Shown here piece by piece: positions 8,736-46,096 of a stretch of 64,000 bases of DNA. The DNA comes from Alphaproteobacteria bacterium (GTDB lineage: Bacteria; Pseudomonadota; Alphaproteobacteria; GCA-2731375): NCBI GenBank assembly GCA_965232515.1, contig CBDDPY010000002.1:4224001-4288000 (forward strand). Reading direction: 5' to 3'. Under the pieces are notes generated by a model. The model was given only the letters and a program-made list of their open reading frames with translations, searched no databases and was not told the DNA's origin. The position numbers and the translations under genes were made by a program. Position 1 is the stretch's first letter. Each line of letters opens with the position of its first letter.

Positions 8736-8748
8736 GGCCGGCGGTGCC

Positions 8749-20392: not shown

Positions 20393-20447
20393 GATGACCC
20401 CTCCAGTACCCGAAGGTTGCATCAGAGGACGTCAAATCACCACCGCA

Positions 20448-20684
20448 TCACTGTGCGATCATCTCTCGACGCCCACGAAAAGACGTGAACAGCCGACAGC
20501 CGATCCCGCCACACTTCCGGCATTCAACTGAATTAGCCAGCTCGTAGAGCGGGATGTTCCGGCTGAACTGCTGTATCAGCTCGTCACTGTCGAAATCGCT
20601 TATCCGCCCGCACCGTGGGCACTTGCCGTGGATTCGAAAGTCTTCGATGTACTCGCCCAGCGTCGCGATCACTGTGCCCGTCAT
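20448..20684 (-). CDS. Small zinc-ribbon protein
   Basis: CPRCG and CRKCG; adjacent to the SRAP gene. Confidence 0.65.
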   Translation of the reverse strand: MTGTVIATLGEYIEDFRIHGKCPRCGRISDFDSDELIQQFSRNIPLYELANSVECRKCGGIGCRLFTSFRGRREMIAQ

Positions 20685-20739
20685 ACCCGTCTCCCATGTT
20701 CTTGTTATGTTCAGATATTGAGAATGGGCGGCGGGAGAG

Positions 20740-21200
20740 TCAAGAAAGCTCCTTCACGACAATCTCACCATCGTATGGGCGTAGCAAATTCTTGCGGGGC
20801 TCGGTCAGCCAGGCGCCGTATTCGTCCGGCAGCAGGATCGCTGGCATGCGGTCGTGGTAATCGGCCACAACCTCGTTAGGCGGCCCGACGACCATTGAGC
20901 AGGCTAGCGACGGTTCGTCGCCTTCGCCCTTATAGAATTTCCAGACACCAGCAATCCCATACGGCTCGCCGTCGGGCATCGAGAACGCGAACTTCTTCTT
21001 GCCGCCCTTTGGGCCTATCCATTCGACGAAATGGGCTGCCGGCAGGATGCACCGACGCTCGGCGAACGCTTTCCGCCACATCGGTTTCTCATTGATGGTC
21101 TCGGCGCGGACATTGTTGATCGGCCGCTTTGTGAACTGGCGCTCGAACCCCCAACGCATCTCGGAGACGCTTCGCTCGCTGTCCATCTTGTGGACGGCGG
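20740..21200 (-). pseudogene. SOS response-associated peptidase (SRAP/YedK), N-terminally truncated
   Basis: MRWG, NVRAET, RRCILPA..FVEW and HDRMPAIL present; N-terminal MCGR with the catalytic Cys2 not found. Confidence 0.75.
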
Positions 21201-21343
21201 ATGGCTTCGACGTTTGTTGTGTTGTTGTACAAATTGCACGTCGATACATCTTAGCTGGAGCAGCAAGGCGATGCACAAAGCTGGAGGTACGGCGCCTTAT
21301 CAGTTTCGATGGAAGGGCGCTTACTTGATGGAAAGGGGGGCCC

Positions 21344-22396
21344 ATGGATTACAGAGTTGAGGCATATCAATTCTTCTCAAGACGTTCCATCAACCTCGAA
21401 CCCATCGGGGAATTTCAGGCCAGCTCCGTCAAGCGGCCTGACATAAAATTTCATCTTACTTTCGAATTCGCAGACAAGAGCTTCGATCTAAACTTCGCAC
21501 AATGGTTTCCCGGGCGCCCCACGATTGGCCCCCACCAAATTGTTGATCCCGTCGTTAACGACTACTTTTCAGAAAGGTGGCCCGTATGCATGCTGGCTAA
21601 AGGTACCGTCAAGTTCCCCCTCGGCGAGAGAGCATCTTCAAATGACATTCGCCGCGAACAGCTGACCTTTCTTCGCAGTCTTCTGTGGAACGGGCACAAA
21701 GGACATCCGCATATAGCTATCCCCTCGGATCAAAGAGCATCCGTCTTGAGCTATCGACGCGAGTTTTTTCACACTCAGTTGTTCGATGTATTTGGTCAGA
21801 GGCGACCTAACGATTTTGCTGGGTTTTCTCCAACCGACCTTAATGAACCGATCGGCCCAGGCTTTGCATGGCTGCCAGACGAGCGGGGAATCGACCTGAT
21901 CAACGAGTTTGTCTGGAGCCCAATCCTTCCGTTCAAAAACAGATCAACATTTGAGCAGGATATGCCAATCGTAGGCAGAGTCCTGGGCTCCCTCAGACGC
22001 TACTACAATAGCTACAGTGAGCTGCGGGATGCACGACGTCACCTTGATGCAAACGAGCTGAAGGCCTCAGTTCGCTCCTCCGCATCTGCTTTGGAAGCCT
22101 GTTTGCTTCATCTCAGGCAAGCATGGGACGGCTCCTCACCACCAAGACACCTTCCCTTTGACGAGAAAATCGAGTGCGTGCTTCGATCCATCGGAAAGCC
22201 TTCATATCGAGCCGTCGAACCCGATCTGTCGAAAACCCTTCTCTACTTGTATAGGTCTCGGAACTCGATGCACGAGGGTGATTGCTACTATGACCGCGAT
22301 GACGGAAAGCGAATTCATATAACAAAGAAATCTCAGGCAAAATGTTTCGTCGAGGCAGTCGAATCCTTTGTCATATGGGCAGATGCGATTGTTTGA
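21344..22396 (+). CDS. Hypothetical protein with C-terminal HEPN-like domain (ApeA-like layout)
   Basis: SASALEACL ... LYRSRNSMHEG; low GC. Confidence 0.65.
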   Translation: MDYRVEAYQFFSRRSINLEPIGEFQASSVKRPDIKFHLTFEFADKSFDLNFAQWFPGRPTIGPHQIVDPVVNDYFSERWPVCMLAKGTVKFPLGERASSNDIRREQLTFLRSLLWNGHKGHPHIAIPSDQRASVLSYRREFFHTQLFDVFGQRRPNDFAGFSPTDLNEPIGPGFAWLPDERGIDLINEFVWSPILPFKNRSTFEQDMPIVGRVLGSLRRYYNSYSELRDARRHLDANELKASVRSSASALEACLLHLRQAWDGSSPPRHLPFDEKIECVLRSIGKPSYRAVEPDLSKTLLYLYRSRNSMHEGDCYYDRDDGKRIHITKKSQAKCFVEAVESFVIWADAIV

Positions 22397-28250: not shown

Positions 28251-28370
28251 CCGCAACGACATTGACTGTCATAATCAAAGAATCTGCCATAGCAACTTAA
28301 GATCTTCACATGTAATCTTTTTCAACCAATGATAATTATTCCTGTCCGACTTACCAGGGAGACGACGCTA

Positions 28371-29321
28371 ATGTTGATAAGGATGTCGGGCGTATTTTCG
28401 GTCATGTTGTTGGCAAGCGCGCCAGCAAGTGCGTTGACATTGGACGACTGCATTCCGCTTAACAACGATCTGAAGGCGGCCAGTCTCGAGGAACATCTTT
28501 TCGGCGGCGCACCGGATACTGGCGATTTGATTGTCCGACGTGGCTTTGTATTGGGGTACGACGAAGATAGGCGGGTGCCGGCATGGGCGGCTTGGAGGGC
28601 GATCAAGGATTATCGCGATACCCCCTCTCGTAAGAGCCGCTGGAAAACCTTTAGAACCGATGACTTGGTGTCAGATGTGACGACCGACGACTATATCGGT
28701 TGGTTCGACTCTGACGACAACTTCGCCCGCGGCCATATCGTTCCCTACTATATCTCCGGCGGCGATCGAGACCACGACGGTGAGGACGCCGAGATTGAAA
28801 GCACGCTTGCTGTCGAAGACGACCACGATGCCTGTGTGGTGTTCGAGATCAATTCAATGATCAACATCGCGCCGCAGTACCACGATAGGTTCAATGGGCA
28901 GCCGGGCGTGTGGTGGAAACTTGAAACCGACGTGAGGCAGATGATCGATGATGGTCGGTCCTTTAATGTCCTAGCGGGATCAGTGTTCAAAAACGATCAG
29001 GCTATTCAAAAAATCGGCCCCATAAACGATGACACCCAGTGGGATATCTCAGTGCCGCATGGGTATTTCAAGATCGTCGTGGATGTCGAGAATCTGTCCG
29101 CAGTTGGCTTCCTCTTTGACCACCAGGGCGATCTGGCCAAGGGCTGCGATATCGATCAGATCAACTGGCCATCGGAATGCGTCAGGCCGATCAATGACAT
29201 CGAAGAGGCAACTGGCCTTAGGTTCTTTCCCAATCTCACCAATCCCGAAAACGAGTTGCTTCGCGCGACAAGCAATAAAGGTACGTGGTTTCGTTGGCTT
29301 AAGGCTGCCGGAGTCATTTAG
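28371..29321 (+). CDS. Secreted DNA/RNA non-specific endonuclease (NucA/EndoG family)
   Basis: Signal peptide; ARGH, NIAPQ...FN..W..LE, VPHGYFKIV, IEEATGLRFF. Confidence 0.9.
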   Translation: MLIRMSGVFSVMLLASAPASALTLDDCIPLNNDLKAASLEEHLFGGAPDTGDLIVRRGFVLGYDEDRRVPAWAAWRAIKDYRDTPSRKSRWKTFRTDDLVSDVTTDDYIGWFDSDDNFARGHIVPYYISGGDRDHDGEDAEIESTLAVEDDHDACVVFEINSMINIAPQYHDRFNGQPGVWWKLETDVRQMIDDGRSFNVLAGSVFKNDQAIQKIGPINDDTQWDISVPHGYFKIVVDVENLSAVGFLFDHQGDLAKGCDIDQINWPSECVRPINDIEEATGLRFFPNLTNPENELLRATSNKGTWFRWLKAAGVI

Positions 29322-32923: not shown

Positions 32924-33157
32924 ATGATGACCGGCGCACAAATCAGGATGGCTCGCGGCTACCTCAAATGGTCAGTTCAAGAGCTGGCGAGCAAAGCCGG
33001 CGTCGGCGCGTCGACAGTGCAGCGGATGGAAGCGGTTGAGGGTGTCCCGGCCGCGTCGGGCAAGAACCTTGCGGCCGTCCAAAAAGCCCTAGAGGCTGCA
33101 GGTGTCCGGTTCATAGACGAGAACGGCGGCGGGCCGGGCGTGCGACTGAAGGGCTAG
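32924..33157 (+). CDS. XRE family HTH regulator
   Basis: QIRMARGYLKWSVQELASKAGVGASTVQRME..ALEAAGVRFIDENGGGPGVRL. Confidence 0.9.
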   Translation: MMTGAQIRMARGYLKWSVQELASKAGVGASTVQRMEAVEGVPAASGKNLAAVQKALEAAGVRFIDENGGGPGVRLKG

Positions 33158-33322: not shown

Positions 33323-34174
33323 CTATTTATCCGAATCGCGCGCGCGATTCGGATAAAGCAAGAAAACCAATAGCTCGGCCGCTTGGGCCAACTTGGCGTT
33401 TTCATCTTCCAGGCATAGGGTTTCTAGGAGAGTGAGGGCGTGCCCCAAGTTCATGTTGCCGAGTATGTTTTCGCTGTCGTTCAGGTTCTTGTTTGTGGCG
33501 GTCAGATAGCCGGCAACCCATTGCTCCACGGCATATCGATAATTGATTGTCTCGCCGTCGTCTGGTTGCTGTCGTGCTGCGACAAATTCGGCACAACTGC
33601 GCTGGCCGGCGGCAAAGGCTACGTAGCCGCTTCCGGTTGGCGGCGGGCCTACCCGCGTAGCCTGTTCGCCAAAGCGAGGCTTGGGTTTGTCATCCAAAGC
33701 CGCCGCACATTTAGCCAAACGCAAGAGCGCCTTGTTAGAGCCGGTCAGATCAAAGCGGAACGTCTGCGGGTCGGTTTCGACGTAGAGGGCGAACCCGCGT
33801 CGCAATGCCTCAACGTGGCCTTCTTCAGCGCCAAGCACGACACGGAAAGAATCAACGTCGAGCACCTCGATACGGAAGTTGCCCAACTCAAGCGCATCCG
33901 TTCGCACGAAAGCGACCAGATCTCTTTCATAGAAGTCGAATCCGTCTTTTGCGATCACGACAGACAGCCCGCCTTGGCGTGACAGCAATATTGCTAGCCA
34001 TTCACCATTCGGATATCGCTGGTTTATCTGGCATTGCCGATCCGAAATAGCGGAGCCAGACCATAGTCCGGCTTTGAACTCATGACGGGCATCGGCCCGG
34101 GTAAAGGCCGGGATCGCGAGCGCCAATAGCGCCAACATCACGCCCCATACGATCCCTGCCTTAATGCCGTTCAT
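33323..34174 (-). CDS. Secreted two-domain hypothetical protein (C-terminal HdeA/Rap1a-like Cys pair)
   Basis: Signal peptide; SCAEFV..WVAGYLTATN..LC. Confidence 0.65.
   Translation of the reverse strand: MNGIKAGIVWGVMLALLALAIPAFTRADARHEFKAGLWSGSAISDRQCQINQRYPNGEWLAILLSRQGGLSVVIAKDGFDFYERDLVAFVRTDALELGNFRIEVLDVDSFRVVLGAEEGHVEALRRGFALYVETDPQTFRFDLTGSNKALLRLAKCAAALDDKPKPRFGEQATRVGPPPTGSGYVAFAAGQRSCAEFVAARQQPDDGETINYRYAVEQWVAGYLTATNKNLNDSENILGNMNLGHALTLLETLCLEDENAKLAQAAELLVFLLYPNRARDSDK
33326..33357. repeat. Perfect 32-bp palindrome with no loop
   Basis: TTTATCCGAATCGCGC|GCGCGATTCGGATAAA. Confidence 0.95.
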
Positions 34175-34350
34175 GGCCAACCCCAACCGGTTGCGATACC
34201 CGATTAGATCAGTCTGACGCATCGGCGTTGAAACCGGAATAACGGCCGGGATGTCCGGCAGTTAAATTACACATAAATAACGTAAAATTTTTCTTCATAC
34301 GGATCGGTGCTGGTGATATTGTATTTTCGTAACCAGCAAAGAGGTTAGGC

Positions 34351-34557
34351 ATGGGCCGATACACCAAGATCGTTTCGCACGCCGAAGACCCGGACGTGGT
34401 TGAGCGTGTTCGGGAGCTTGCCGAGCAAGCCGGCACGACGCCGAGCGCGTGGATACGTCAAGCGACGCGGGAGCGGTTGCGCGAAGCTGAGTGGAACGAG
34501 GCTGAATGGGAAGACGCCGAATGGTCGGATGGCTCAGACTTTGAGGGAGCGACCTGA
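34351..34557 (+). CDS. Ribbon-helix-helix-like small regulator
   Basis: VERVRELAEQAGTTPSAWIRQA; GAGG RBS; leads the virion-module operon. Confidence 0.65.
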   Translation: MGRYTKIVSHAEDPDVVERVRELAEQAGTTPSAWIRQATRERLREAEWNEAEWEDAEWSDGSDFEGAT

Positions 34558-35969
34558 TGGCGAGTGGATGGAACGGCAGCGGTCAGGTTGTTCGCTCGGA
34601 CGGCACGAGAACGGGAACAACGGTCTGGGCGCAGGCGAAAGCAGCCGGACAGAGGATCATTGCGGCGTCGCACGATGTCCACGATGAGACGCTGGCCGAC
34701 TCGATAGAGGACTGCATCAACCGGAACGGTGAGAACGCGGTTACCGCCGATATCGGTTGGGGTGGCAACAAGATCACCAATATCGTTGGCATCACGGATG
34801 GTGACGGCGACACGCAAGTTCAGATCGAAGAAGGAGCCGACGACGACACGATCCGACTTGATGCAGCGGGCACGGAAGTTGCGTCGTTCACATCCACGGC
34901 GGCATCGATCAACACCGAACTGACGGTTGCGGAAGCCAATGACGGCGCGGATACATCTCTTGTCCTGAACAATTCCGCCGCTGCCGGATCGACGGACGAG
35001 ACGGCAGCGTTCGCCTTTCAGCAGGCAGGGTTACAGGCGGGCAAGATCGTCGCCGGCCGGATCTCGAACTATTCGTCCGATGCGAACGAAGACAGCTATC
35101 TTGCCCTGTTCACGTCACAAAGCGGGACGGACACCGAAGCCCTTAGGATTGACGAGGCGGGCAAGGTCTTCATCGGCGATACGCTGAATGCAAACGCCAC
35201 CGGTTCGTCGCTCACCATCAACCAGGGCGCGAGCGATGATGAAATCCTGGCGCTTAAATCCAGTGACGTAACGCATGGAACAACGGCCGTGACGGAAACC
35301 GATACGTTCGGCTTCGTTGACAAGAATACCGCCGCTGCGGGGGGATTGAACGTTCGCGGGCTGGCGGCGGCACAGAATGTCGGCCTTAATCTTTTCGCCT
35401 ATTCGCAGAATGACGACGCAAACAAAACCACAACGGCCGGTGGGCGGATGGTGTTGTCCTCGTTCAAGGTTTCCGGGACCGATATCACTGACTCCGGCGC
35501 AAACTCGAACATCTGCATCTGGCAGCATCGTTCGGGTGGCGCTAATCGTATCGCCATGATCCTTGACGAGGACGGCGATCTTCATGTCGATGGCTCGGGT
35601 ACGCTTTCGACGTTTGACGCCTTCAATGACGCCGCTCTTGTGCGCACTTTTGACATGATTCGCTCGCCAAACGAGGTCATCAAGTCGAAGTGGGACGAGT
35701 TTGTCGAATACGGACGTGCCGATCTTGTGAGAGCCGGCATCCTCGGTGATATCTCGCCGGAAGATGAGGCCCGAGGCCATGCACCGATGGTCAATGTTAC
35801 CCAGCTTCAGAGGTTACATAACGGTGCGATCTGGCAGCTTCACTGTCAGATGCGGGAGATGGGCGAGAAGCTCGAAAACCTGCATCGGGACGTTGGGCTT
35901 ATTCCGACGTTCAAGCGGGGGCTGCGGCGGATCTTCTCGGGCGGAAAGTCGGCGGTAGTGAATGGGTGA
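34557..35969 (+). CDS. Phage tail fibre-like protein
   Basis: N-terminal anchor-like WNGSG..CINRNG...TADIGWGGNKITNI; DGDTQVQIEEGADDDTIRL; Gly/Thr/Asp-rich body; chaperone-like helical C-terminus. Confidence 0.7.
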   Translation: MASGWNGSGQVVRSDGTRTGTTVWAQAKAAGQRIIAASHDVHDETLADSIEDCINRNGENAVTADIGWGGNKITNIVGITDGDGDTQVQIEEGADDDTIRLDAAGTEVASFTSTAASINTELTVAEANDGADTSLVLNNSAAAGSTDETAAFAFQQAGLQAGKIVAGRISNYSSDANEDSYLALFTSQSGTDTEALRIDEAGKVFIGDTLNANATGSSLTINQGASDDEILALKSSDVTHGTTAVTETDTFGFVDKNTAAAGGLNVRGLAAAQNVGLNLFAYSQNDDANKTTTAGGRMVLSSFKVSGTDITDSGANSNICIWQHRSGGANRIAMILDEDGDLHVDGSGTLSTFDAFNDAALVRTFDMIRSPNEVIKSKWDEFVEYGRADLVRAGILGDISPEDEARGHAPMVNVTQLQRLHNGAIWQLHCQMREMGEKLENLHRDVGLIPTFKRGLRRIFSGGKSAVVNG

Positions 35970-36363
35970 GATTATGCATAGCACCGCCGAATTGATGGCC
36001 CTGCCGGCGGATGAGCTGGAACGGCTGATAGCCGAACATCCCGAACGTGTGGCCGCTGTATTGGCGGACGGCAACCCAACCACAGCAGACGGGCAGGCGC
36101 TGGGCTCACGGCTCAGCAGCGGTGCGCTGCATACCTTGGTTGCGGCTTGGCATGGCTTAGATATCCCGGCGCACCTGAACCTTGACGACAATGCCCGCTG
36201 TGACGTGCTGCTACGTCTCTGCGGCATTGAGCCGCCGGCCTATGACGCGTTGTCGGAAAACGACAAAGGCAAGATCAACAATTTGATGCAGGCCGGCATG
36301 GATGCCAAGGCCGCGTGGATTGAGGTGACGGGCGAGCCGGCTCCGGAAGCGAGGACGCACTAA
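35962..36363 (+). CDS. Hypothetical protein in the virion module
   Basis: Overlaps both neighbours. Confidence 0.6.
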   Translation: MGEIMHSTAELMALPADELERLIAEHPERVAAVLADGNPTTADGQALGSRLSSGALHTLVAAWHGLDIPAHLNLDDNARCDVLLRLCGIEPPAYDALSENDKGKINNLMQAGMDAKAAWIEVTGEPAPEARTH

Positions 36364-37778
36364 TGACGGGCACAATGTCACGATTGCTCAGTGCCATGAC
36401 GGAAAGGCAGGCACTTGGACCCTCGGGACAGACGCCGGCTTCTGCTTTTGCCCAACAGCTTCTGACCAATCAGCCTGGCGGGCTTGGAAACCTCGCCAGC
36501 CCGATCATCGCAGCGATGTTGTTGAAACGAGACCAGGAACAGCGACAGCGCATCGAGGGCGAGGACGCGGACATGTTCCGTCAGGCGTTGAAAGCGCTTC
36601 AAGGCGGCGTCAAAGAGTTCCGCAGCCCGGACACGGGCGAGGTGCTCGTACCCGGACAACAGCCCGGCGCACAGGCGTTCGCGCAGGTGCTGGCGGGTAA
36701 CCCCCGCACCGCTCCCATTGCAGCAAACGTCATGGCCGACGCATTGCAGCAGAACCGGCCTAAGTTCGTGAACGTGCCGAATGTGGGGCTGGTCCGAACA
36801 CAGGGCGACACGGCGGAAACGGTCATAGAGGCGCGGCCGGACGAGTTTGAAACGATCAGGCTCAATAACGGTGTGCTGGCCCAGCGGAACAAGCGCACCA
36901 ACAAAATTTCATCTTTGCCACAGACACGCCCGCCATCGGCGCGACAAGCGCGCATACAGTCGTTGATGGACCAGGGCTTGGACCAGACAACGGCAGCCAA
37001 CGTCGCGGATGGCTTTATTCAGATTTTGCCGGACGCGCTGGGCCGACCCGTTGCCGTTAATGTCGTGACGAACGAACAGACGCCCTTACGTGTCAGCAGC
37101 GTCCAAACCAGCCAACAGCCAGCGTCAGCCGCGTCACAAGTTACACAGCCGACACAGAGTCCCGAGCCGGCGAACGTTCCGCAATCTGCCGTCAATGTAG
37201 TTGACGGCACACCCAGTGACAGCGCATCTCCGCCCGCGTTGCCAACCGACCGACCGCCTTTGACGGCCTTCGAGGCTGTCCAGGGCGGTACGGGCATCCT
37301 GCCGGCTATACAGGGCGCAATCTCAAGCACAGCCGGTCAGTTCTTCGAGGGTGCGCAGTTTCCGGGGGTGGCCCAAAGGCGCGCATTCTTTGCCGGCCTT
37401 CAGCAGCAAGCCATTAGAGCGTTCTCGACTGGCGGCAAGACGCCCGTGGTCGAGCAAGAGCGGATCGCAAACATCTTCGCGAAATTGGGCGCATTGGAAA
37501 GCGAGGCGGACGCCGTGGCGTCGCTGCAAACCGCCGTGCAGATGATCGACCAGCGCATTGCGCAGAACGAACGAGCGATGCGGGCTCCCAATACGCCGAC
37601 AAAAGATATCCCCGAGCTGGCCCGAGGCATCACCGAACTCAGGAACCTGAAAGAAGTTGTGGGCGTCCCTTTGCCAGGACAGGTGCAGCAGAACGGGCCG
37701 CAGCAGACGGGTGAGGATTTCGGCGACCTGACGACCGATGAAGCGGATGAGCTTCGACGCCTGCGGGGGCAGCAGTGA
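36363..37778 (+). CDS. Putative DNA-ejection (internal virion) protein
   Basis: Gln/Ala/Gly-rich and helical, no Cys or Trp; positioned after the fibre gene and before a large helical ORF. Confidence 0.6.
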   Translation: MTGTMSRLLSAMTERQALGPSGQTPASAFAQQLLTNQPGGLGNLASPIIAAMLLKRDQEQRQRIEGEDADMFRQALKALQGGVKEFRSPDTGEVLVPGQQPGAQAFAQVLAGNPRTAPIAANVMADALQQNRPKFVNVPNVGLVRTQGDTAETVIEARPDEFETIRLNNGVLAQRNKRTNKISSLPQTRPPSARQARIQSLMDQGLDQTTAANVADGFIQILPDALGRPVAVNVVTNEQTPLRVSSVQTSQQPASAASQVTQPTQSPEPANVPQSAVNVVDGTPSDSASPPALPTDRPPLTAFEAVQGGTGILPAIQGAISSTAGQFFEGAQFPGVAQRRAFFAGLQQQAIRAFSTGGKTPVVEQERIANIFAKLGALESEADAVASLQTAVQMIDQRIAQNERAMRAPNTPTKDIPELARGITELRNLKEVVGVPLPGQVQQNGPQQTGEDFGDLTTDEADELRRLRGQQ

Positions 37779-40348
37779 TGCCGACGCCGCGCGAAGAACT
37801 CACCATTCGCCGCGAGCTAGCCGCCGGTAATCTGTCACCGAGACGGGAATTGGAATTGCGGCGTCAGTTGTCGGATATCCCGACGCAGGGTGTTTCACCT
37901 TTCAACACGGCGGCGCAACCATTTGTCGGCTTCAACATGGGCTTGGCCGATGTTATCGATCTTCCGCAACGCGTCGGCACGGCGATAACGAACCCGGTTC
38001 GTGAGCTTGTCGGTTTGGAGCCGGCTCCCATCGATCAGACATCGCCAATTACCGATGCGCTGAGATCGGGTGCCGAGACGTTCCCGGCTACGACGGGCGT
38101 AGAGCGCGGGCTAAGGCGTGTAGGGCAAGAGTTCGGTGCAACGGCTCCGATAGCCGCACTGCCGTTTGTCGGCGCGTCGGGACGTGCCGCACAGACAGCC
38201 GCCAACGTCGGCACGCGAGGCTTTCAGGCTTTCCTGAACACTGTCAGGTCCACACCTGGTAGGGCGGCGGTAGGTGAAACCATTGCCACGGCCGGCGCTG
38301 GTACTGGCGCGGCAATAGCGAACGAACTAGCGCCCGGAAGCCAGGGCGCGGAGATCGCCGGCCAGCTAATTGGCGGTGTATCACCCGCCGCCCTTGCCAC
38401 GACGCCGACAAGCCTTGCCGTTCGCGCCGGTCGGAATGTCGCAAGCCGGTTTTCCGAGGATGCCATGCGCACCCGCGCACAGGATCAGGCGCGGGAAGTG
38501 ATCGGCGGCAACCTGACGCAAGAGGCAACCCAGAACCTCAATCAAGCCGACGACGTGACACGCGAGATACCGGGCTTCGATCCGACGCTTGCCGAGCGCA
38601 CAGGATCGCCCGGCCTGACGGCAACGCAACGGCGCATCGAGGCGCAGTCAAGCGGCGCGGACCTGGAAGCGGTCGCGGCCCGCAGACGCGCCAATGAGGC
38701 GGCTATCAACCGCTTCGGGCAGGTACGCGGCCCTTTGGGCGAGGACGCACCCGAATTTGTGATCGATACCGCGGCCCGCCGCGTTGACGATCTGCGCAGC
38801 ACGGTGGAACGCCAACAGGCCAGGACCGCCGGCCAGCGTCAGGACTTGGCGGAAAGCCTGCAACCGACTGACAGGGCTGCACAGGGCCGTGGCTTGCGGG
38901 ACACGCTCTTTGAGGCCCGGTCACGATCAAGCCAGGAAATGACGGCGCTTGCCGAACGGTTGGGCATCAACGACGCTGATGTCACCGCCGAGTTCACGAA
39001 TGCCCGGCAGCGCATCGAACAGGCATTTGCGCCGGGGTCGGTTTTTGAGGACCGGGCCAATGCGCCCGCCGTCTTGCAGGCAATCCGGAACGCTCCCGAG
39101 CAAGTGACGTTTCAGGATTTGAAGGCCCTTCGCGAACGCATCGGTGACGATCTGATGGACGCCGAAACGTCCGCCAATCCGAGTTCGAAGAAAATCCGCA
39201 CGCTGTCTACGTTGCAGCGGATGGTCGATAGCGTGATTGACGATCTTACCCGCACGGCAGACCCGGACCTGGCAGACCGTTACCGCCAATTTCGCACGAC
39301 CTATTTCAACGATCACGTTGCCCGGTTCAACCAGGGCCCGGCCTTCCGGGTAAGGCAGAAAGACGGCCGCGGATTTTTCCGTATCGCCGACGAAAAGGTA
39401 GCGCAGGCGTTTTTCGCACCCGGCGACGTCAGGTCCGCCCGTCAGTTCCGGGCGGTGTTCGGTGACAACCCCGACGCCAACAGCGCCATACAGGCCGTGG
39501 CTATGGATAGCTTGAGAAATGGCGTCGTGCGGGACGGCGTGATTAATCCGAGGGCGCTCGAAAACTGGGTTCGCAAACATCGGTCGGTGTTGGACGAGTT
39601 TCCGGAGATCGACGCGCTGGTGAGAGATGTTGCGTCGGCCGACGAATCCTTGCGAGCGCGTCAGACGCAACTCAGGGCCAGAACACAGACCATCGAAAAC
39701 CAAGCCATCACGAAGGAGCTTACCGCCTTCGGCCGCGCCACCAAGACGAGCGGAAGTGTGATTGACGCGGCCATCCGCGAGCCGCGCAAGATGGCCCAAC
39801 TTGCCGGCCGGTTGAAACGCAACCCCGATGCTTTGGCGGGATTGAGGCGGAACGTCTGGAACCGTGCGATATCGGGAAGCTCGGAAGACATCTTGCGGTT
39901 CATGAACGACAACGCCGGATCGCTAAGGGTGTTGTTCGGCGGCCGGCATTTCCGGGACATCGAAACCATCGCCGCCGCGCGAGCCATGCTCGAACGGGTG
40001 CCGTCGCCGACCGGGGCCGCATTTCAGCCCCGCCCGCTAGAAGGCGTCGAGCGCGCCATAGGCCAGGGCTTGCCGCAACTGTCTAGCCGCCTGTTTGCCG
40101 CCAGGACCGGGCGTGTCGGACGCGGCTATCTGGCGGTGGATACGTTCCTCAGAGGCATTCGAGGCCGTGCTGCCGTCGATGCCGACGACCTGCTGCGGGA
40201 AGCGCTCTACGACAGTCAGGTTGCCCGCGACATGGCCGAAGCCGTCAGGGTCGGTGAAGTCAAGCCGGATGTGGCGAAGCGCCTTGGTGCGCGCCTGTTC
40301 AATCTCGGGCAGCCATTCGAGTTTAGCGACGAGCAACAGAGGCCGTAG
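37775..40348 (+). CDS. Putative large DNA-ejection / DNA-transfer protein
   Basis: 857 aa, Ala/Arg-rich, Cys-free; Gly/Ala hydrophobic stretch; PTLAERTGSPGL motif; layout like podoviral ejection proteins. Confidence 0.65.
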   Translation: MMPTPREELTIRRELAAGNLSPRRELELRRQLSDIPTQGVSPFNTAAQPFVGFNMGLADVIDLPQRVGTAITNPVRELVGLEPAPIDQTSPITDALRSGAETFPATTGVERGLRRVGQEFGATAPIAALPFVGASGRAAQTAANVGTRGFQAFLNTVRSTPGRAAVGETIATAGAGTGAAIANELAPGSQGAEIAGQLIGGVSPAALATTPTSLAVRAGRNVASRFSEDAMRTRAQDQAREVIGGNLTQEATQNLNQADDVTREIPGFDPTLAERTGSPGLTATQRRIEAQSSGADLEAVAARRRANEAAINRFGQVRGPLGEDAPEFVIDTAARRVDDLRSTVERQQARTAGQRQDLAESLQPTDRAAQGRGLRDTLFEARSRSSQEMTALAERLGINDADVTAEFTNARQRIEQAFAPGSVFEDRANAPAVLQAIRNAPEQVTFQDLKALRERIGDDLMDAETSANPSSKKIRTLSTLQRMVDSVIDDLTRTADPDLADRYRQFRTTYFNDHVARFNQGPAFRVRQKDGRGFFRIADEKVAQAFFAPGDVRSARQFRAVFGDNPDANSAIQAVAMDSLRNGVVRDGVINPRALENWVRKHRSVLDEFPEIDALVRDVASADESLRARQTQLRARTQTIENQAITKELTAFGRATKTSGSVIDAAIREPRKMAQLAGRLKRNPDALAGLRRNVWNRAISGSSEDILRFMNDNAGSLRVLFGGRHFRDIETIAAARAMLERVPSPTGAAFQPRPLEGVERAIGQGLPQLSSRLFAARTGRVGRGYLAVDTFLRGIRGRAAVDADDLLREALYDSQVARDMAEAVRVGEVKPDVAKRLGARLFNLGQPFEFSDEQQRP

Positions 40349-40355
40349 CCAGCCC

Positions 40356-40778
40356 ATGGAATATTACCTTTCCCCCTGGCGTTTCGAGGCAGAGCCATAT
40401 CCGACTTGGCGCAGTCCGTTCGATGATGACGTGGGGTTGATCGATCTGCGCTCGCCGGCCCAGATCCGGTCGGACGGCATTGCCGAAGGCTACGGCCTGT
40501 TTGCAACGCGGGTGCGGCAGACCATTCCTGACTCGATCTACCTCGGGGACTCACTTCACGGCCAGATCGATACAACGACCCTCAAGCGAGAATTGGGTCT
40601 TGGTGAAGACATCGTTGCGACCGGCCTGGGCGAGGTAATTTACGAGTTGCTGACGATGCATGCTGATCCGATGGTATCGACACGTTGGGGCTGTCTGATG
40701 CCCTGCCAAAACGGTCGCAATGAAATTTGGCTTGGCGGTCGCATTGCTCGAATGCTGGTTCTGCCCGGTCAGTGTTGA
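40356..40778 (+). CDS. Hypothetical protein
   Basis: ATG 8 nt after the upstream stop. Confidence 0.5.
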   Translation: MEYYLSPWRFEAEPYPTWRSPFDDDVGLIDLRSPAQIRSDGIAEGYGLFATRVRQTIPDSIYLGDSLHGQIDTTTLKRELGLGEDIVATGLGEVIYELLTMHADPMVSTRWGCLMPCQNGRNEIWLGGRIARMLVLPGQC

Positions 40779-40936
40779 GCGTCCGCGTCTGGAATGGATG
40801 CGCGCGCAATATCCGGATCTGTTTCGCCGCGCCTTGCTGTTGATGCGCGACGTGAACGCGGCTGCTGCAGAGATCGTCATGCACAACGCGGCGATATTGG
40901 ACGCCGCAAGTGAACAACACCGGGAGGTTCGCGAAA

Positions 40937-41356
40937 ATGCCGCCGCTCGATAACCAGCGTCATGAAAAATTCGCCCAAGCCCTCGCGGAAGGCATGTCAG
41001 CAGATGCCGCTTATGCCGAAGCCGGCTACAAACCCGATAGAGGCAACGCGTCTCGCCTGACGTCAAAAGACAGCATCCAAGCCCGTGTTTATGAGCTGCA
41101 GCAGGCAGCAGCGAAAAAGGCCGTGCTGACGCTTTCCGATCATCTGGAAACGCTCAAAGACATCAGGGATGCGGCCATAGCTGCACGACAGTACGCCGCT
41201 GCGACGAATGCGGAGGTCCATAGAGGCAAGGCGGCGGGTCTGTATGTTGAGCGCATTGAGACATCCGATGTGGTGCGTGTCGTAAGCGCTGAACCGATGA
41301 CGGATGACGAATGGGAGCAGCAGTATGGCGCCCAGACATCGGAAGCGACGCATTGA
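40937..41356 (+). CDS. Terminase small subunit-like protein 1
   Basis: GGAGG RBS; NQRHEKFAQALAEGMSADAAYAEAGYK...NASRL...IQARV.EL. Confidence 0.8.
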   Translation: MPPLDNQRHEKFAQALAEGMSADAAYAEAGYKPDRGNASRLTSKDSIQARVYELQQAAAKKAVLTLSDHLETLKDIRDAAIAARQYAAATNAEVHRGKAAGLYVERIETSDVVRVVSAEPMTDDEWEQQYGAQTSEATH

Positions 41357-41643
41357 TGCCGGACACCAGATTCAAACCCGGCCAGAGCGGAAACCCGAAA
41401 GGCAGGCCGAAGGGCGCACGCTCGAGGCTGTCTGAGGCTTTCTTGCAAGAGCTGGCCGAACACTGGGAACAGAATGGGCGCGACGTGCTGGACCAAGTGA
41501 GAAACAACGATCCATCAACCTATCTGCGCGTCATTGCCTCACTAATCCCGAAGGGCATCAGTTTCTCGGGCGATATCAGCTACGCCGCTATACCAATTCC
41601 GGTCAGCGAGCGTGCGCCACTCGATATCGAAACCACGCACTGA
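41356..41643 (+). CDS. DUF5681-like (TerS-type) protein 2
   Basis: TRFKPGQSGNPKGRPKGAR..L...FL..L...W...G. Confidence 0.75.
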   Translation: MPDTRFKPGQSGNPKGRPKGARSRLSEAFLQELAEHWEQNGRDVLDQVRNNDPSTYLRVIASLIPKGISFSGDISYAAIPIPVSERAPLDIETTH

Positions 41644-41670
41644 TCAGCCTGTTCTTACAGGGATATACAG

Positions 41671-42096
41671 ATGGCGAAGTGGACACAGTGGACGGCAAAA
41701 AAAGAGGCAGACTTCCTCGCGATCCTTAGCAATGGCAGCAGCGTACAGGCGGCGGTACAGGCTATCGGGTGCAGCCGGTCGAACGCGTACAAGCGCAGAC
41801 AGAATGACCCGGAATTCGCCGCTCAGTGGGATGCGGCTATCGAAGCCGGCAGCGACCTACTCGAAGACGAAGCCAAGCGCCGCGCGCATGAAGGCGTTCT
41901 GGAGCCGGTCTACTACCAGGGCCAGGAAGTCGGCCAAGTGCGAAAATACTCTGACACGCTCTTGATGTTCATGTTGAAAGCCAGACGCCCGGACAAGTTC
42001 AAGGAACGCAAGGAACAGCAGCTAACGGGCAAAGATGGCGAGCGTCTCAAGCCAACCATCAACCTTACTATCGGATCTGAACCTTCATCTGCATGA
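41671..42096 (+). CDS. Terminase small subunit-like protein 3 (HTH type)
   Basis: FL..L..G.SV..A...G.SR..AY..R..DPEFA..WD.A; LEDEA.RRA.EG; RKYSDTLLMFMLKARRP.KF; LTGKDG. Confidence 0.8.
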   Translation: MAKWTQWTAKKEADFLAILSNGSSVQAAVQAIGCSRSNAYKRRQNDPEFAAQWDAAIEAGSDLLEDEAKRRAHEGVLEPVYYQGQEVGQVRKYSDTLLMFMLKARRPDKFKERKEQQLTGKDGERLKPTINLTIGSEPSSA

Positions 42097-42139
42097 GAAG
42101 CAGGGACAGGCGTTCCTGAGCCATGCGACGGAGATCATG
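42035..42139 (+). pseudogene. N-terminal stub of a large terminase
   Basis: LHEKQGQAFLSHATEIM overlapping the TerS3 end; similarity stops where a YGGAAGGGKS-type Walker A would begin. Confidence 0.55.
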
Positions 42140-42215
42140 AGAGAACTCAGCTCTTCTAAGACCGACATACCACGTAACGTTGATTTTCGCTCGCCAATGG
42201 GTCAGATTAGTTGGC

Positions 42216-42719
42216 ATGGGGGAAAATGGAAAATCTGCTATCCAAGCAGCTCTTGTCGGAGGAATATTCGCCGTCGTAGCTGCAGTGTTGGGGGCGTTTG
42301 TAGGATATTGGATAGCTTCGCCGGGCGCGGACAGATTAAGGCAAATTGAAGCAGACACTGCTAGAGATCTGGCAACATACTTCTCGGAATTCATAGCATC
42401 TCGTGAACGCTTAGTGCGGCACTTGAAAGGTGAACCTCAGGAGAAAGCACCAGAAGAAGAGATCAACAAATACGTCGAGGAAGCCAAAAAGCTGGACCAG
42501 CAATGGAGAACATCAACGGTAGCGCTGGCGGCTGCACTACGTTTTGCCGAACATAATTTTGACGAGGGTGTTCAGAGCTTAGCCAGCGAATTCATCGAGT
42601 GGCATGCCGAGCAAGAAGCAGCGCGCGCTGGAAAGGCAATCACAGAGTGGGTTGATACAAGCAAGTACCAAGATTGGCGGGATAGGATCTTGAAGGCAAC
42701 ATCTCAAGCTGTGAGATGA
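42216..42719 (+). CDS. Membrane-anchored hypothetical protein
   Basis: N-terminal TM helix; helical body. Confidence 0.6.
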   Translation: MGENGKSAIQAALVGGIFAVVAAVLGAFVGYWIASPGADRLRQIEADTARDLATYFSEFIASRERLVRHLKGEPQEKAPEEEINKYVEEAKKLDQQWRTSTVALAAALRFAEHNFDEGVQSLASEFIEWHAEQEAARAGKAITEWVDTSKYQDWRDRILKATSQAVR

Positions 42720-42738
42720 GCCGTACTCAGGGGCGAAA

Positions 42739-42939
42739 ATGAAAGCTTCGGCTTTTGTCGGATTTTTGTTGCTGGGCTTTCTCGTTGGGGCATTTTCGGC
42801 TGCAGTGGCGGAGGTAAAACAACCCGGCAAGCCGCCTGGTTGCCGGTATTTCTGCCCACCGCCGAACCCGTTGCCGTTTCCAAAGCCGATTAGGCAGCCA
42901 ACCGAGAAAAGCATCAGCAGTCTGGATACATATCGCTAA
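42739..42939 (+). CDS. Small secreted Pro-rich peptide
   Basis: AGGGG RBS; signal peptide; CRYFC and PPPNPLPFPKP. Confidence 0.45.
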   Translation: MKASAFVGFLLLGFLVGAFSAAVAEVKQPGKPPGCRYFCPPPNPLPFPKPIRQPTEKSISSLDTYR

Positions 42940-43057
42940 CGCCGGCTCGAACCTTCGGCCGTGAGTAAGGGCCAATGTCGAGACCCATCGGCAATGGCAG
43001 TGGTGCGGGTGATGCTGGAGATTTTGGGCGGCGTAAGGTGTATCGGACAACAGCAAA

Positions 43058-43582
43058 GTGAAATCGACGCACGAGACGGACCGCTTAACTGCGAGCAAGG
43101 CGTTCTACAGAGCTTTGACAGGACGCGATGAGCTTGGAGTCGTCATACGGGCTCACATCTACATCGAACAACTCGTCAACGAGACGCTAGAATGGTTAAT
43201 TCCATACCCTGACGCCTTGGATGCTATGGACTTGGATTACTCTCAGCGGGTCCGCCTATTGGTGGCACTCGGCTTGAAGGATCAGCACCTTGGTTCATTG
43301 CTAGCGCTCGGGAAACTAAGGAACGAGTTTGCGCACAGACTGGACGCCAAACTTACTGCTGGAAGGATGAATGACTTTTACAAGCGCTTCGACAGCGAGG
43401 ATAAGAAAATCATTCAGAGAGTTTACGATTCGACACGAAAGAAAGCTGGCGATCGCTCCAAGCCGAAGAAAATAACCAGCCTTGAGCCGAAGGATCGGTT
43501 TGCCCTATACGCAGCGACAATTCATGGGGCATTGCGCGCTGCGATAAGCGAATTGTCGGAGCAAAAAGAGCAAGCCCGTTAG
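43058..43582 (+). CDS. MtlR/HEPN-like protein
   Basis: RAHIYIE ... LRNEFAH. Confidence 0.7.
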   Translation: MKSTHETDRLTASKAFYRALTGRDELGVVIRAHIYIEQLVNETLEWLIPYPDALDAMDLDYSQRVRLLVALGLKDQHLGSLLALGKLRNEFAHRLDAKLTAGRMNDFYKRFDSEDKKIIQRVYDSTRKKAGDRSKPKKITSLEPKDRFALYAATIHGALRAAISELSEQKEQAR

Positions 43583-43609
43583 ACTGAGCTTGCTCTTTCC
43601 GGGGTAAAC

Positions 43610-44011
43610 TCAATCTTCGTCAAACCGATGCGTATCCTCATACAGCGCGATGGCTGCAAAATACTCTGACACTTCGCCAGGATCGGCCAGCCAGACGTTA
43701 TCTTCGGTGATAAGCAATCCCGACTTATCGAAAGCGTAAATAAGCTTCGGGTCAATGCCAGATCTGCGCATTGCCTCTATCATGTCCTGGTGCACGGCAT
43801 CGGCATCGCGCGACGTCGGTTCTTCGGCGTCGGGATCGAAAAACACTGGATCGCCAGGCGCCGGCTCGCGGCCGAATTTTTCGATGAACGCCGGTCGCTG
43901 CTTTTTCAACACCTCCATTGCTTCCGGCGATAGCGGCGTACTGGTTTCTTGGCGGCTGGATTTGGTGGAACGACGTTGACGCCGCGGGCGCCCTGATTTG
44001 CTCTTCGGCAT
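43610..44011 (-). CDS. Conserved hypothetical protein
   Basis: AGGGAGG RBS; FIEKFGREP.PGDPVFFD, GIDP.LIYAF.K.GL. Confidence 0.7.
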   Translation of the reverse strand: MPKSKSGRPRRQRRSTKSSRQETSTPLSPEAMEVLKKQRPAFIEKFGREPAPGDPVFFDPDAEEPTSRDADAVHQDMIEAMRRSGIDPKLIYAFDKSGLLITEDNVWLADPGEVSEYFAAIALYEDTHRFDED

Positions 44012-44350
44012 AGCTGCCTCCCTTCTGAAAGCAGCTACCCATTATGTAGATCAGAAACAGGCCGACTATGGAATTTCGCGGGTAATCTTCCATAGTCTCG
44101 TCACGGTTTGTTCGCTACTAGTAGCCGCCGAGTTATGCTCCGAGCAACGCCTGAGCCAGGGAAGCCGGACCTATTTGGGCCGTGAGGGAGTCCTGCCCCT
44201 CCAGGCGCATCCCCAATCTGACGGCAGCCGTCCCGCTATTTCCCGGAACTACCCGAAAAATCCCGCTTCAGAGCTTCGAAACCGCGATTTCTGATTGCTA
44301 TGTGATTGCTAGCCGAGCGCTTGTTCGGCAGTGGTATTGCTAAGTCATTG

Positions 44351-44405
44351 AAAAGATGGAGCGGGCGATGAGATTCGAACTCACGACTTCAACCTTGGCA
44401 AGGTT
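44351..44405. repeat. Right attachment site (55-bp direct repeat)
   Basis: Identical to 8548-8602. Confidence 0.97.
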
Positions 44406-44431
44406 GCGCTCTACCCCTGAGCTACGCCCGC
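44357..44431 (-). tRNA. tRNA-Gly (GCC)
   Basis: GCGGGCG acceptor stem, anticodon arm CAACC-TTGCCAA-GGTTG, TTCGAAT T-loop, encoded CCA. Confidence 0.98.
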
Positions 44432-44584
44432 GTCGCTATGCTGCTCGCCATATCCGGAGAGCGAGCGGATAATAAGCAAATCGCTTGCCGTTGCAAGCGT
44501 CAAGAGGCGGGTTTTCCGGCGAACCCCGATCTGGCATAACGGCGCGCCAAAGCGACGATAACAAAACCGCCAACAGAACCCGCC

Positions 44585-45076
44585 ATGCCCGCGACACCGG
44601 AAGACCTGTTTGCCCGCCTGGACGACCTGGGCATCGCCACGACGACGCACGCGCACCCGCCGCTGCACACGGTCGAGGAGAGCCGGCGGCTGCGCGGCGC
44701 GCTGCCGGGCGGGCACTGCAAGAACCTCTATCTGCGCGACAAAAAGAAGCGCAACTGGCTGCTGGTGACGCTGGAGGACCGCGAGGTCGACCTGAAGACC
44801 GTGTCGACGGTGCTGGGCGCCGGGCGCTTGAGCTTCGGCAGCGCCGACCGGTTGATGGAGTTCCTGGGCGTGACGCCGGGCTCGGTGACGCCGTTCGCGC
44901 TGATCAACGACCCCGAACAGCGGGTGACCGTGGTGCTGGACGAAGCCATGCTGAAGGTCGATCTGTTGAACTATCATCCGCTGGTCAACACGGCGACGAC
45001 GGCGATCGCGCCCGACGACCTGCTGGTCTTCATCCGCGCCGGCGGCCACGAGCCGCAGATCGTGGCCCTGGACTAG
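44585..45076 (+). CDS. YbaK/ProX family aminoacyl-tRNA deacylase
   Basis: HPPLHTVEES, KNLYLRDKK, LGVTPGSVTPF, HPLVN. Confidence 0.92.
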   Translation: MPATPEDLFARLDDLGIATTTHAHPPLHTVEESRRLRGALPGGHCKNLYLRDKKKRNWLLVTLEDREVDLKTVSTVLGAGRLSFGSADRLMEFLGVTPGSVTPFALINDPEQRVTVVLDEAMLKVDLLNYHPLVNTATTAIAPDDLLVFIRAGGHEPQIVALD

Positions 45077-45193
45077 CGGGATGCCGGGCCGCGCCATGCC
45101 CTTGTATGCCCGCGTAACTGCTCCATAATTAATCACCTGGGGGGCGCGTTCCGGATGCGGACGCCACCCTCCGCAACGGCAAGGAAAACCATA

Positions 45194-46096
45194 ATGGAAC
45201 CGATCATCGCCCCGACACAGGCGCCGCCGGACGCGATCAAGGACAGCGATACCGCCAATTTCGCGCAAGACGTGCTGCTGGCCAGCCGCGAAACGCCCGT
45301 GATCGTCGACCTGTGGGCGCCGTGGTGCGGCCCGTGCAAGACGCTGGGGCCGCTGCTGGAGAAGATCGTCAAGGAGAGCGGCGGCGCGGTGAAGCTGGTG
45401 AAGATCAATATCGACGAGAACCAGCAGCTGGCGCAGCAGTTGAGGGTGCAGTCGATCCCGGCAGTGTTCGCCTTCGTCGACGGCCAACCGGTCGACGGCT
45501 TCGTCGGCGCCCTGCCGGAGAGCCAGCTGAAGCAGTTCGTGCAGCGGCTGACCGGCGATCAGGGCCCGTCGCAGATCGAGCAGGCGCTGGAGGTGGCGAA
45601 ACAGGCGCTGGAAAGCGGCGATCTGGAACAGGCGCTGGGAATTTATGGCCAGATCGTCCGGGCCGAGCCTGGCAATCCGGCGGCGCTCGCCGGCATGGCG
45701 CAATGCTATCTGCAGAACGGCGATGTCGAGCAGGCGAAGCAGGCGCTGGAAGGCGTCGCCGAGGCCGACGTCAAGCATGCCGACGTGGTCTCGGCCCAGG
45801 CCGCGATCGAGCTGGCGGGCCAGGCCGGCGATGCCGGCGAGGTCGGGCCGCTGCGCGCGGCGGTGGCGGCCAACGCCAACGACCATCAGGCGCGCTTCGA
45901 CCTGGCCATGGCGCTGGTCGGCCAGGGCAATCGCGAGGAAGCCGTGGACGCGCTGCTGGAGATCGTGCAGCGCGACCGGCAATGGAACGACGAGGCGGCG
46001 CGCAAGCAGCTGCTGACGCTGTTCGAGGCGTTCGGACCGACCGACGAGTTGACGGTGTCGGCCCGACGGCGGCTGAGCTCGATCCTGTTCTCGTAA
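45194..46096 (+). CDS. cnoX: Thioredoxin-TPR chaperedoxin (CnoX/YbbN family)
   Basis: WCGPC plus TPR region; C-terminal RRRLSSILFS. Confidence 0.9.
   Translation: MEPIIAPTQAPPDAIKDSDTANFAQDVLLASRETPVIVDLWAPWCGPCKTLGPLLEKIVKESGGAVKLVKINIDENQQLAQQLRVQSIPAVFAFVDGQPVDGFVGALPESQLKQFVQRLTGDQGPSQIEQALEVAKQALESGDLEQALGIYGQIVRAEPGNPAALAGMAQCYLQNGDVEQAKQALEGVAEADVKHADVVSAQAAIELAGQAGDAGEVGPLRAAVAANANDHQARFDLAMALVGQGNREEAVDALLEIVQRDRQWNDEAARKQLLTLFEAFGPTDELTVSARRRLSSILFS

Follow-up and report, generated by a model that had tools for sequence, protein, structure and literature searches.

We examined three small genes that lie side by side in an integrated island of an alphaproteobacterial genome and resemble phage small terminase (TerS) genes. 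The window, by which we mean the whole 64,000-nucleotide stretch that was analyzed, comprises positions 4,224,001 to 4,288,000 of the forward strand of contig CBDDPY010000002.1 (assembly GCA_965232515.1, GTDB lineage GCA-2731375), and all positions given here are those of the window. The first open reading frame, ORF1 (40937-41356, plus strand, 139 aa), encodes a type-1 TerS of the Terminase_2 or Pam5-like kind with a DDEWEQQYG...TH tail. ORF2 (41356-41643, plus strand, 95 aa) encodes a type-2, TerS-like protein of family DUF5681, in which a basic N-terminal arm is followed by a helical hairpin and an ...ETTH tail. ORF3 (41671-42096, plus strand, 141 aa) encodes a type-3 TerS resembling Sf6 gp1, without the EW tail motif of its relatives.

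The three reading frames are consecutive and co-directional, contain no internal stops, and carry at the same positions the motif sets given for them in a preliminary description of this DNA. A ribosome-binding site, GGGAGG, precedes the ATG of ORF1 by nine bases; the stop codon of ORF1 shares one base with the ATG of ORF2 (TGATG), and the 27-nt spacer between ORF2 and ORF3 contains AGGGA. Alternative starts exist for ORF1 (GTG at 40910, giving 148 aa) and for ORF2 (ATG at 41311, giving 110 aa). A promoter and terminator scan, in which both classes of site were at or below shuffle expectation, found no terminator-like site on the plus strand between 33678 and 42519. Because of the overlap, the short gap before ORF3 and the lack of a terminator-like site in that interval, the trio looks like one translation unit. 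The preliminary description had also held that the genes are not paralogs of each other. Pairwise BLASTP comparisons bear this out (E = 66, 13 and 0.54), so that no similarity is detectable; on the same grounds we rejected an origin of the trio by splitting or duplication of one gene. No paralog of any of the three was found elsewhere in the 7.39-Mb genome, which is 96% complete.

Sequencing runs were also searched for the region. Two polyA/RT-PCR RNA runs under the same species label had no reads on 34000-46000, a result that does not serve as a test of expression. One DNA run (X1) contains the region exactly and may be the source sample, so that it gives no independent support. In a second DNA sample (run X3), one contig joins position 41516, in the middle of ORF2, to the attachment (att) repeat at 44351, with 30 nt on the shorter side of the junction and a depth of 22.6. 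This could be a variant island without ORF3 and the accessory genes that follow it, or an assembly artefact.

Profile searches with Terminase_2, DUF5681 and TerS families of the helix-turn-helix (HTH) type, as proposed in the preliminary description, placed each gene in a different TerS lineage rather than only one of them among TerS genes. ORF1 matched TerS family phrog_51 of the PHROGs collection (E = 8.8e-14) and three further TerS PHROGs, scored 25.2 bits against Pfam Terminase_2, just below the curated cut-off of 26.1, and aligned over residues 1-132 of 139 with the solved small terminase of Pam5 (PDB 21di, nine chains; E = 2.4e-22). ORF2 scored 44.2 bits against Pfam DUF5681 (PF18932), above the cut-off of 27.5, over profile positions 2-31 of 77. 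It is 48% identical to a gene of Rhizobium phage RHph_N2 (EVC05_082) that overlaps the large terminase (TerL) gene, and 42% identical to the TerS of Pam1; its tblastn matches to phage genes span residues 5-71, and the PHROGs families to which it belongs carry the label "unknown function". The model of ORF2 (pLDDT 77.9) consists of a disordered basic arm and a two-helix hairpin, and a Foldseek search of it against the PDB returned nothing at E<=0.001 and nothing below E 3.8. ORF3 matched TerS family phrog_4044 (E = 8.9e-39) and scored 23.4 bits against Pfam Sf6_terminase, below the curated cut-off of 27. Its AlphaFold model, built with 18 relatives (pLDDT 83.6), matched the helical DNA-binding domain, long helix and beta-hairpin of the Sf6 gp1 fold; the six best Foldseek matches were all Sf6 gp1 chains, with probabilities of 0.98-1.00, TM scores of 0.49-0.60 and E-values of 0.012-0.16, which are above the tool's 0.001 mark. 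By alignment, ORF1 and ORF3 appear to be full-length in comparison with working phage TerS proteins, ring core included. NCBIfam gave no match for the trio or for seven neighboring genes, and in the literature we found nothing pertinent on DUF5681 and no structure paper for the Pam5 terminase. That three separate TerS lineages are each matched significantly inside 1.16 kb is more than chance would give.

The genomic position of phage homologs agrees with these assignments, and with the TerS-like identity that had been proposed for all three genes. Homologs stand directly before TerL in Pam5 and phiLM21 (ORF1 type), in RHph_N2 and Pam1 (ORF2 type), and in RcSimone-Hastad, POR1 and 83-24 (ORF3 type), with one extra, unrelated ORF in between in RcSimone-Hastad. 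Each of these seven phages has a single TerS homolog, and the portal gene usually follows TerL; phage RcXuper has two adjacent genes annotated as TerS ahead of TerL. For ORF2 we retrieved 104 loci with relatives, 78 viral and 26 genomic, and assessed those with enough downstream sequence. A TerL match started within 1.2 kb downstream in 51 of 75 viral loci, and most of the others had an ORF of 394-564 aa there. Among the genomic relatives, TerL was found downstream by tblastn in 9 of 25, and two more had a downstream ORF matching TerL family phrog_2. A recognizable TerL was thus absent from 14 of 25 genomic loci versus at most 24 of 75 viral ones, and ORF2-type genes unaccompanied by a TerL are frequent among bacterial genomes. 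Islands that combine an integrase and a primase with restriction-modification cargo hold some of these (L019, L022), and in one island DUF5681 genes form a tandem pair (L014). Tandem DUF5681 pairs also stand directly after a ParB-like or methylase-size gene of 423-468 aa in five genomes of the class (L218-L222; genomes G221, G037, G122, G285 and G317), with a large serine recombinase close by in two of these loci and no TerL match found at them. In 15 of 20 loci of the class with an ORF3-type gene, that gene is immediately followed by a large ORF or a TerL match.

Unlike those phages, in which one TerS gene directly precedes TerL and portal genes, the island holds three TerS genes together with no TerL after them. 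No named phage record was common to any two of the lists of records matching ORF1 (32), ORF2 (6) and ORF3 (95); the first two lists were complete, whereas ORF3 was compared by organism tallies in which one name was missing. The ORF3 tallies and the ORF1 list share only the word Rhodobacter, and the phages concerned differ. The possibility raised in the preliminary description that the trio occurs routinely upstream of TerL in intact phages is therefore not borne out. In the 104 loci with ORF2 relatives no ORF1-type gene was found, and an ORF3-type gene occurred in one (Acidisoma, L013), 7 kb away. No second TerS type was present in 17 further loci related to ORF1 or ORF3, so that two types stood side by side in none of 121 related loci. 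Among 301 genomes of the class, DUF5681 was found in 52, phrog_4044 in 29 and phrog_51 in 47; these counts include the genome under study, and those for DUF5681 and phrog_51 also include one unpublished genome (G270). When listed coordinates were compared in the 300 other genomes, no two of the three families lay within 200 kb on one contig. The array is a real and rare arrangement, found in a single genome. Among the papers that a search listed, judged by titles and abstract openings, none dealt with tandem heterologous TerS genes in an island, although the supplementary tables of PMC10085698 and PMC9618062 may list satellites with more than one TerS.

The trio lies in an island of 35.8 kb between two perfect 55-nt direct repeats, with a GC content of 0.53-0.63 versus 0.64-0.74 in the flanks. 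The left repeat (attL, 8548-8602) is a displaced copy of the 3' part of tRNA-Gly and is 100% identical to 44351-44405, the right repeat, which lies in the intact tRNA-Gly(GCC) gene predicted by ARAGORN (44357-44431, minus strand; attR with the gene spans 44351-44431). A tyrosine integrase gene of 429 aa with an arm-binding domain occupies the left end (8731-10020, plus strand; Pfam Phage_integrase 1.4e-16, Arm-DNA-bind_3 7.4e-13, Phage_int_M), and the terS genes lie near the other, followed by three more ORFs before attR. TerL is not directly downstream of the trio, unlike in the phages with homologs, and no TerL fragment was detectable after ORF3. Among about 38 island ORFs scanned with Pfam, PHROGs and NCBIfam, no large terminase, portal or capsid protein was found at E<=0.01. 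Searches of the whole genome gave the same result: nothing was found by tblastn with four phage TerLs and two portal proteins, nothing with a 48-sequence profile of the TerL clade that is found in a sister genus (G clade, described below), and no match to Pfam TerL_ATPase, Terminase_6N, Terminase_3, GpA_ATPase, Terminase_6C, Phage_portal (PF04860) or Phage_capsid (PF05065, HK97-type), seven profiles that were all positive in control genomes. The island therefore appears not to be an intact prophage, in that genes for TerL, portal and major capsid proteins were not found. This is in keeping with the preliminary view of the host element as an integrative island lacking capsid and TerL, since it has the integrase and att repeats of such an element and no match to a motor or capsid gene.

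A related element occurs in a genome of a sister genus (G001), in two copies of about 14 kb (L010, L011) that carry an integrase, an HTH gene, an ORF3-type TerS and a TerL. Identities with the island are 50% for the integrase, 75% for the XRE-type HTH protein and 50% for the type-3 TerS. In both elements a giant protein stands directly upstream of the TerS region; in G001 it is a protein of 1598 or 1640 aa with a PBECR3 domain (polyvalent), and the TerS is followed by a Terminase_6N TerL of 465-468 aa. No capsid or portal gene was evident in the G001 element, which seems from its gene content to be terminase-carrying and capsid-less. It differs from the island in having a single TerS with a DEWRKQH tail and then a G-clade TerL, whereas the island has two extra TerS genes and no TerL, and its ORF3 lacks the motif.

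TerS proteins have a DNA-recognizing N-terminus, a helical or beta oligomerization core and a C-terminal tail that docks TerL, as in P22 gp3, Sf6 gp1 and lambda gpNu1. To judge from alignments and models, the trio would combine three unrelated DNA-binding types with three different tails, each in this usual layout. We grouped the small ORFs abutting TerL genes by TerL clade, after removal of identical duplicates (3, 2 and 8 rows) and of 12 loci without an abutting ORF. In the G clade (G001, Pam5, 83-24 and RcSimone), an EW..Q[HY]-type motif occurred within the last 30 residues of 15 of 61 distinct abutting ORFs, and eight ended in His. None of the 24 distinct ORFs abutting R-clade (RHph_N2) TerL genes had the motif and 20 had a terminal His; in the Pam1/POR1 clade the corresponding numbers were 0 and 4 of 14. 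TerS tails are thus modular, their C-termini varying independently of the N-terminal type and tracking the TerL clade.

The C-terminus of ORF1, ...VVRVVSAEPMTDDEWEQQYGAQTSEATH, parallels the Pam5 tail, and its last 16-30 residues match the tails of small ORFs that adjoin G-clade TerL genes and are otherwise unrelated (L183, 4e-8; L171, 1e-7; L184/L185, 1.6e-6; L190, 6.5e-6; L157, 2.9e-4). The same motif is present in the type-3 TerS of G001 (DADEWRKQHAPK) and in some DUF5681-type genes. ORF2 ends in ...IETTH and resembles R-clade partners ending in GPETTH or GSETAH, a likeness confounded by shared descent, since the R-clade set was gathered via ORF2 relatives. Genes for G-clade TerLs occur in 3 of 32 other genomes of the order. 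When the complex of the G001 TerL with ORF1 residues 85-139 was predicted, the scores were 0.27 and 0.16, for which the mark is 0.32. The preliminary suggestion that the trio provides adaptors for several TerL families has support in that the tails differ and two of them resemble tails linked with two TerL clades, but TerS type and TerL family do not correspond one to one, the Pam5 TerL, which stands by an ORF1-type TerS, being 49% identical to the G001 TerL, which stands by an ORF3-type TerS. The -TH ending of ORF1 and ORF2 is also found in a 133-aa ORF at 35962-36363 and a 65-aa ORF at 18491-18688, and genome-wide in 25 of 27,239 frames of at least 120 aa. This shared ending might mark tails that bind TerL.

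We consider it possible, with a probability of roughly 0.4, that the trio is a packaging-hijack or interference module of a phage-derived, satellite-like island. The island would be satellite-like because it is integrated at tRNA-Gly, is phage-derived, and lacks TerL, portal and capsid genes of its own. Upon infection by a phage with a compatible TerL, the island would excise by means of its own integrase, and one or more of its TerS rings would bind island DNA and recruit the phage TerL, so that island DNA would be packaged into phage capsids; TerL drawn off phage DNA would at the same time mean interference with the phage. With several TerS types, the island might exploit or block a broader range of phages. 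The recruitment step is taken over from the TerS proteins of staphylococcal pathogenicity islands (SaPIs) and other phage-inducible chromosomal islands (PICIs); in SaPIs, TerS redirects the TerL of the helper to island DNA. To our knowledge, packaging-redirecting satellites carry a single TerS, or a single TerS-binding protein, that fits one type of helper, and three heterologous TerS genes would appear to be a novel variation on this theme.

A more ambitious form of this reading is that the island parasitizes several helpers, its TerS cassette of interchangeable DNA-binding heads and TerL-docking tails capturing and sabotaging the motors of several unrelated phage lineages while its own tail fiber and ejection proteins retarget the stolen particles. 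We regard this as rather doubtful. If true, it would make the tail motifs (EW..Q[HY] for the G clade, ...T-x-H-COOH for the R clade) a sequence code predicting the TerL served, and would show how a satellite broadens its helper range, or else a broad defense at the level of packaging. The link between tail motif and TerL clade could help to assign helpers to orphan TerS genes, which are common in alphaproteobacterial genomes, and the trio offers three small, easily expressed genes with which to test helper-range broadening.

Comparison with known satellites gives a mixed picture. In the available part of PMC10085698, PICIs are described as having an integrase at one end, terS near the other and accessory genes after terS, with an alpA, merR or stl regulator and a primase-replicase; their median size is 9.5 kb with a maximum of about 28 kb, and they typically have no other phage structural genes. 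The island resembles SaPI-type and Gram-negative PICIs as an integrase-bearing chromosomal island without capsid or TerL, with terS far from int and accessory genes after it, and shares with the SaPI type the mechanism proposed here, in which TerS turns helper TerL to island DNA. However, it has three heterologous TerS genes rather than one and genes resembling those for tail fibers and ejection proteins, and no alpA/merR/stl, pri-rep or capsid-morphogenesis gene was recognized in it. The likeness to PICIs and SaPIs drawn in the preliminary description therefore extends to the int/terS/accessory gene order, and not to size or to the virion-like genes. Capsid-forming PICIs (cf-PICIs) encode capsid, portal, TerS and TerL and borrow only tails, according to the available text of bioRxiv 10.1101/2022.09.08.507074; like them, the island would be a satellite with phage-derived morphogenesis and packaging genes of its own, but it lacks capsid, portal and TerL genes and its virion-like genes are of the tail-fiber and ejection type. 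Virion-encapsidated integrative mobile elements (VEIMEs) are marine tyrosine-integrase islands of Alphaproteobacteria, some with a TerS closest to those of co-occurring phages, for which redirection of packaging and interference have been proposed (available text of PMC9618062). The island shares with VEIMEs its alphaproteobacterial host, tyrosine integrase and TerS homologs, and differs in being much larger and in having three TerS genes, several per VEIME not being mentioned in that portion of the source. Compared with single phage TerS genes (Pam5, 21di; Sf6 gp1, 3hef/4dzj; RHph_N2, EVC05_082; Pam1), ORF1 and ORF2 show homology and ORF3 a likeness of profile and fold.

Several observations weigh against a packaging module. 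At 35.8 kb the island is far larger than PICIs, and its many orphan ORFs, its nucleases and two tyrosine recombinases besides the integrase suggest that it was built up from several mobile elements. Genes resembling those for tail fibers and ejection proteins, whose viral homology is a lead, would also be present in a decayed prophage. The trio is known from one genome, so that no conservation argues for a joint function, and no pac-like repeat array was found in 40300-42300, where only short two-copy matches occurred, as expected by chance. ORF2 is matched to its family by the N-terminal arm and, at 95 aa, lies at the short end of the family range (98-177 aa); given the tandem pairs beside ParB-like methylases with no TerL nearby, the DUF5681 family may have a different role. 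ORF3 can be aligned with its relatives up to the C-terminus, yet has GSEPSSA where the G001 protein (G001a), RcSimone, 83-24, L135 and G024 have [ED]W. The idea that each TerS type names one TerL family was rejected, as TerL clades are found with a wide variety of TerS heads; next to G-clade TerL genes, 56 of 72 abutting ORFs matched none of the three head types. A search of the 33 genomes of the order for an R-clade TerL had no positive anywhere and so shows little.

The main rival to the packaging module is that the island is an inert mosaic remnant of decayed prophage and satellite pieces, in which separate recombination events brought the three TerS genes to a packaging-module junction, where they now have no joint function. 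We think this somewhat unlikely, though it accounts for a good deal: the island is large and mixed in content, its genes including three tyrosine recombinases and nucleases as well as many orphan ORFs; it retains the tail-fiber and ejection end of a podovirus-like structural operon, from which capsid, portal and TerL are missing; and no second example of the trio was found. The G001 element keeps a TerL directly after its type-3 TerS, so a TerL may have been lost here, and ORF3 has lost the tail motif of its relatives. However, nothing detectable of a TerL is left after ORF3, and ORF1 still has the entire tail seen in a phage TerS of solved structure. The trio and the four large ORFs before it are intact, with tight coupling of starts and stops and a ribosome-binding site for ORF1, and att repeats that are perfect over 55 nt, together with an intact integrase, indicate a recent or still mobile element.

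It is also conceivable, but improbable in our judgment, that the genes act purely in anti-phage interference, as decoys that poison the packaging of several phage types, whether by entering mixed rings with phage TerS, by competition for TerL or through binding of phage pac sites, while the island itself is not packaged. ORF3, modeled with a full DNA-binding domain and ring core but without the tail motif of its relatives, would be what is expected of a competitor blind to TerL, and the genome has no TerL. Accessory genes follow the trio, where satellites often carry defense cargo (available part of PMC10085698), and satellite TerS is listed among interference genes in the portion of PMC9618062 available. 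The tails of ORF1 and ORF2, on the other hand, are like those of working phage TerS proteins, PADLOC returned nothing for the neighboring genes in a scan that did not include the TerS genes, and the trio sits in a mobile, integrase-bearing element with virion-like genes.

A complete but highly divergent virus, whose TerL, portal and capsid hide among the unrecognized ORFs and whose own motor is served by all three TerS proteins, seems very improbable. Many ORFs do lack a family match, and two of the proteins concerned, at 470 and 471 aa, have the size of a typical TerL or portal protein, but the former has tail-fiber-like relatives and the latter is of low complexity, and neither the scans of the island ORFs nor the G-clade TerL profile recovered a motor, portal or capsid gene. 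Equally remote is re-use of the proteins as DNA-binding regulators or partition factors of the island after loss of the packaging role, for although TerS N-termini are HTH-like DNA binders and DUF5681 genes also occur beside ParB-like methylases, ORF1 and ORF3 appear full-length with their ring cores and the trio stands at the end of a virion-gene-like operon, which is the position of a packaging module.

A co-directional block extends from 34557 to 42096, in which the trio is preceded by proteins of 470, 133, 471, 857 and 140 aa without a Pfam, PHROG or NCBIfam family. The first, p470 (34557-35969, plus strand), is tail-fiber-like: it has 175 homologs, most of which share about half of the protein, and its viral atlas neighbors include some with Peptidase_S74 fiber clusters, which is a lead only. 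It is followed by p133 (35962-36363, plus strand), which ends in -TH, and by p471 (36363-37778, plus strand), which is of low complexity and rich in Q, P and A. The product of p857 (37775-40348, plus strand) resembles an internal-virion or ejection protein. Its 18 full-length homologs are 34-49% identical and come from contigs as long as 54 kb; one has an SLT transglycosylase domain. The atlas neighbors of p857 are viral and include one cluster with Phage_P22_gp16, again only a lead. A single-sequence scan of viral contigs for p857 was empty, and a profile scan gave three distant loci at the ends of structural operons. The last gene before the trio is p140 (40356-40778, plus strand). After the trio come the accessory genes p179 (42180-42719, plus strand), with a predicted membrane helix and no Pfam, PADLOC or NCBIfam family, and p174 (43058-43582, plus strand), which matches phrog_5483 (unknown function, 4.1e-8) and weakly HEPN_RiboL-PSP (E = 0.076); a homolog of p174 with 44% identity stands beside a DUF5681-TerL pair in locus L023. 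A 133-aa ORF without a family match (43610-44011, minus strand) completes this end of the island.

Upstream of the block lies an XRE-type HTH regulator of 77 aa (32924-33157, plus strand; Pfam HTH_31 2.5e-6), ahead of this late-like operon. A gene near the integrase (12189-13148, plus strand) encodes an AAA_25 ATPase (6.4e-27) with a C-terminal HTH (HTH_23, 2.7e-5), for which a role in replication or maintenance is possible. Among the island ORFs scanned, no primase was matched, and these two HTH proteins, rather than alpA, merR or stl, were the only regulators of this kind recognized. Further cargo at 19862-21345 and 28329-29321 comprises an SRAP (SOS-response peptidase), an SNase homolog and a secreted-type Endonuclease_NS, and PADLOC gave no match for ten cargo ORFs. 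Between 24314 and 27279, two overlapping tyrosine-recombinase genes (648 and 340 aa) adjoin a minus-strand ORF of 400 aa without a family; the recombinases may mark a nested mobile element.

Outside this genome, type-2 and type-3 TerS genes lie 7 kb apart on a contig of Acidisoma cellulosilyticum (L247, 1-20000). This contig also encodes a 1052-aa primase, and its type-3 TerS (phrog_4044, 2.9e-35) is followed by an 819-aa protein with a transglycosylase domain and by proteins of 1391 and 596 aa; tblastn with eight reference TerLs found no TerL in these 20 kb. Just outside the left border of the island, a 1924-aa ORF occupies 1942-7716 on the minus strand in very GC-rich DNA. Two contigs of the assembly, C3 and C4 (5.5 and 10.9 kb), have GC contents of 0.46 and 0.42 versus 0.655 for the chromosome and may be foreign or contaminant DNA.

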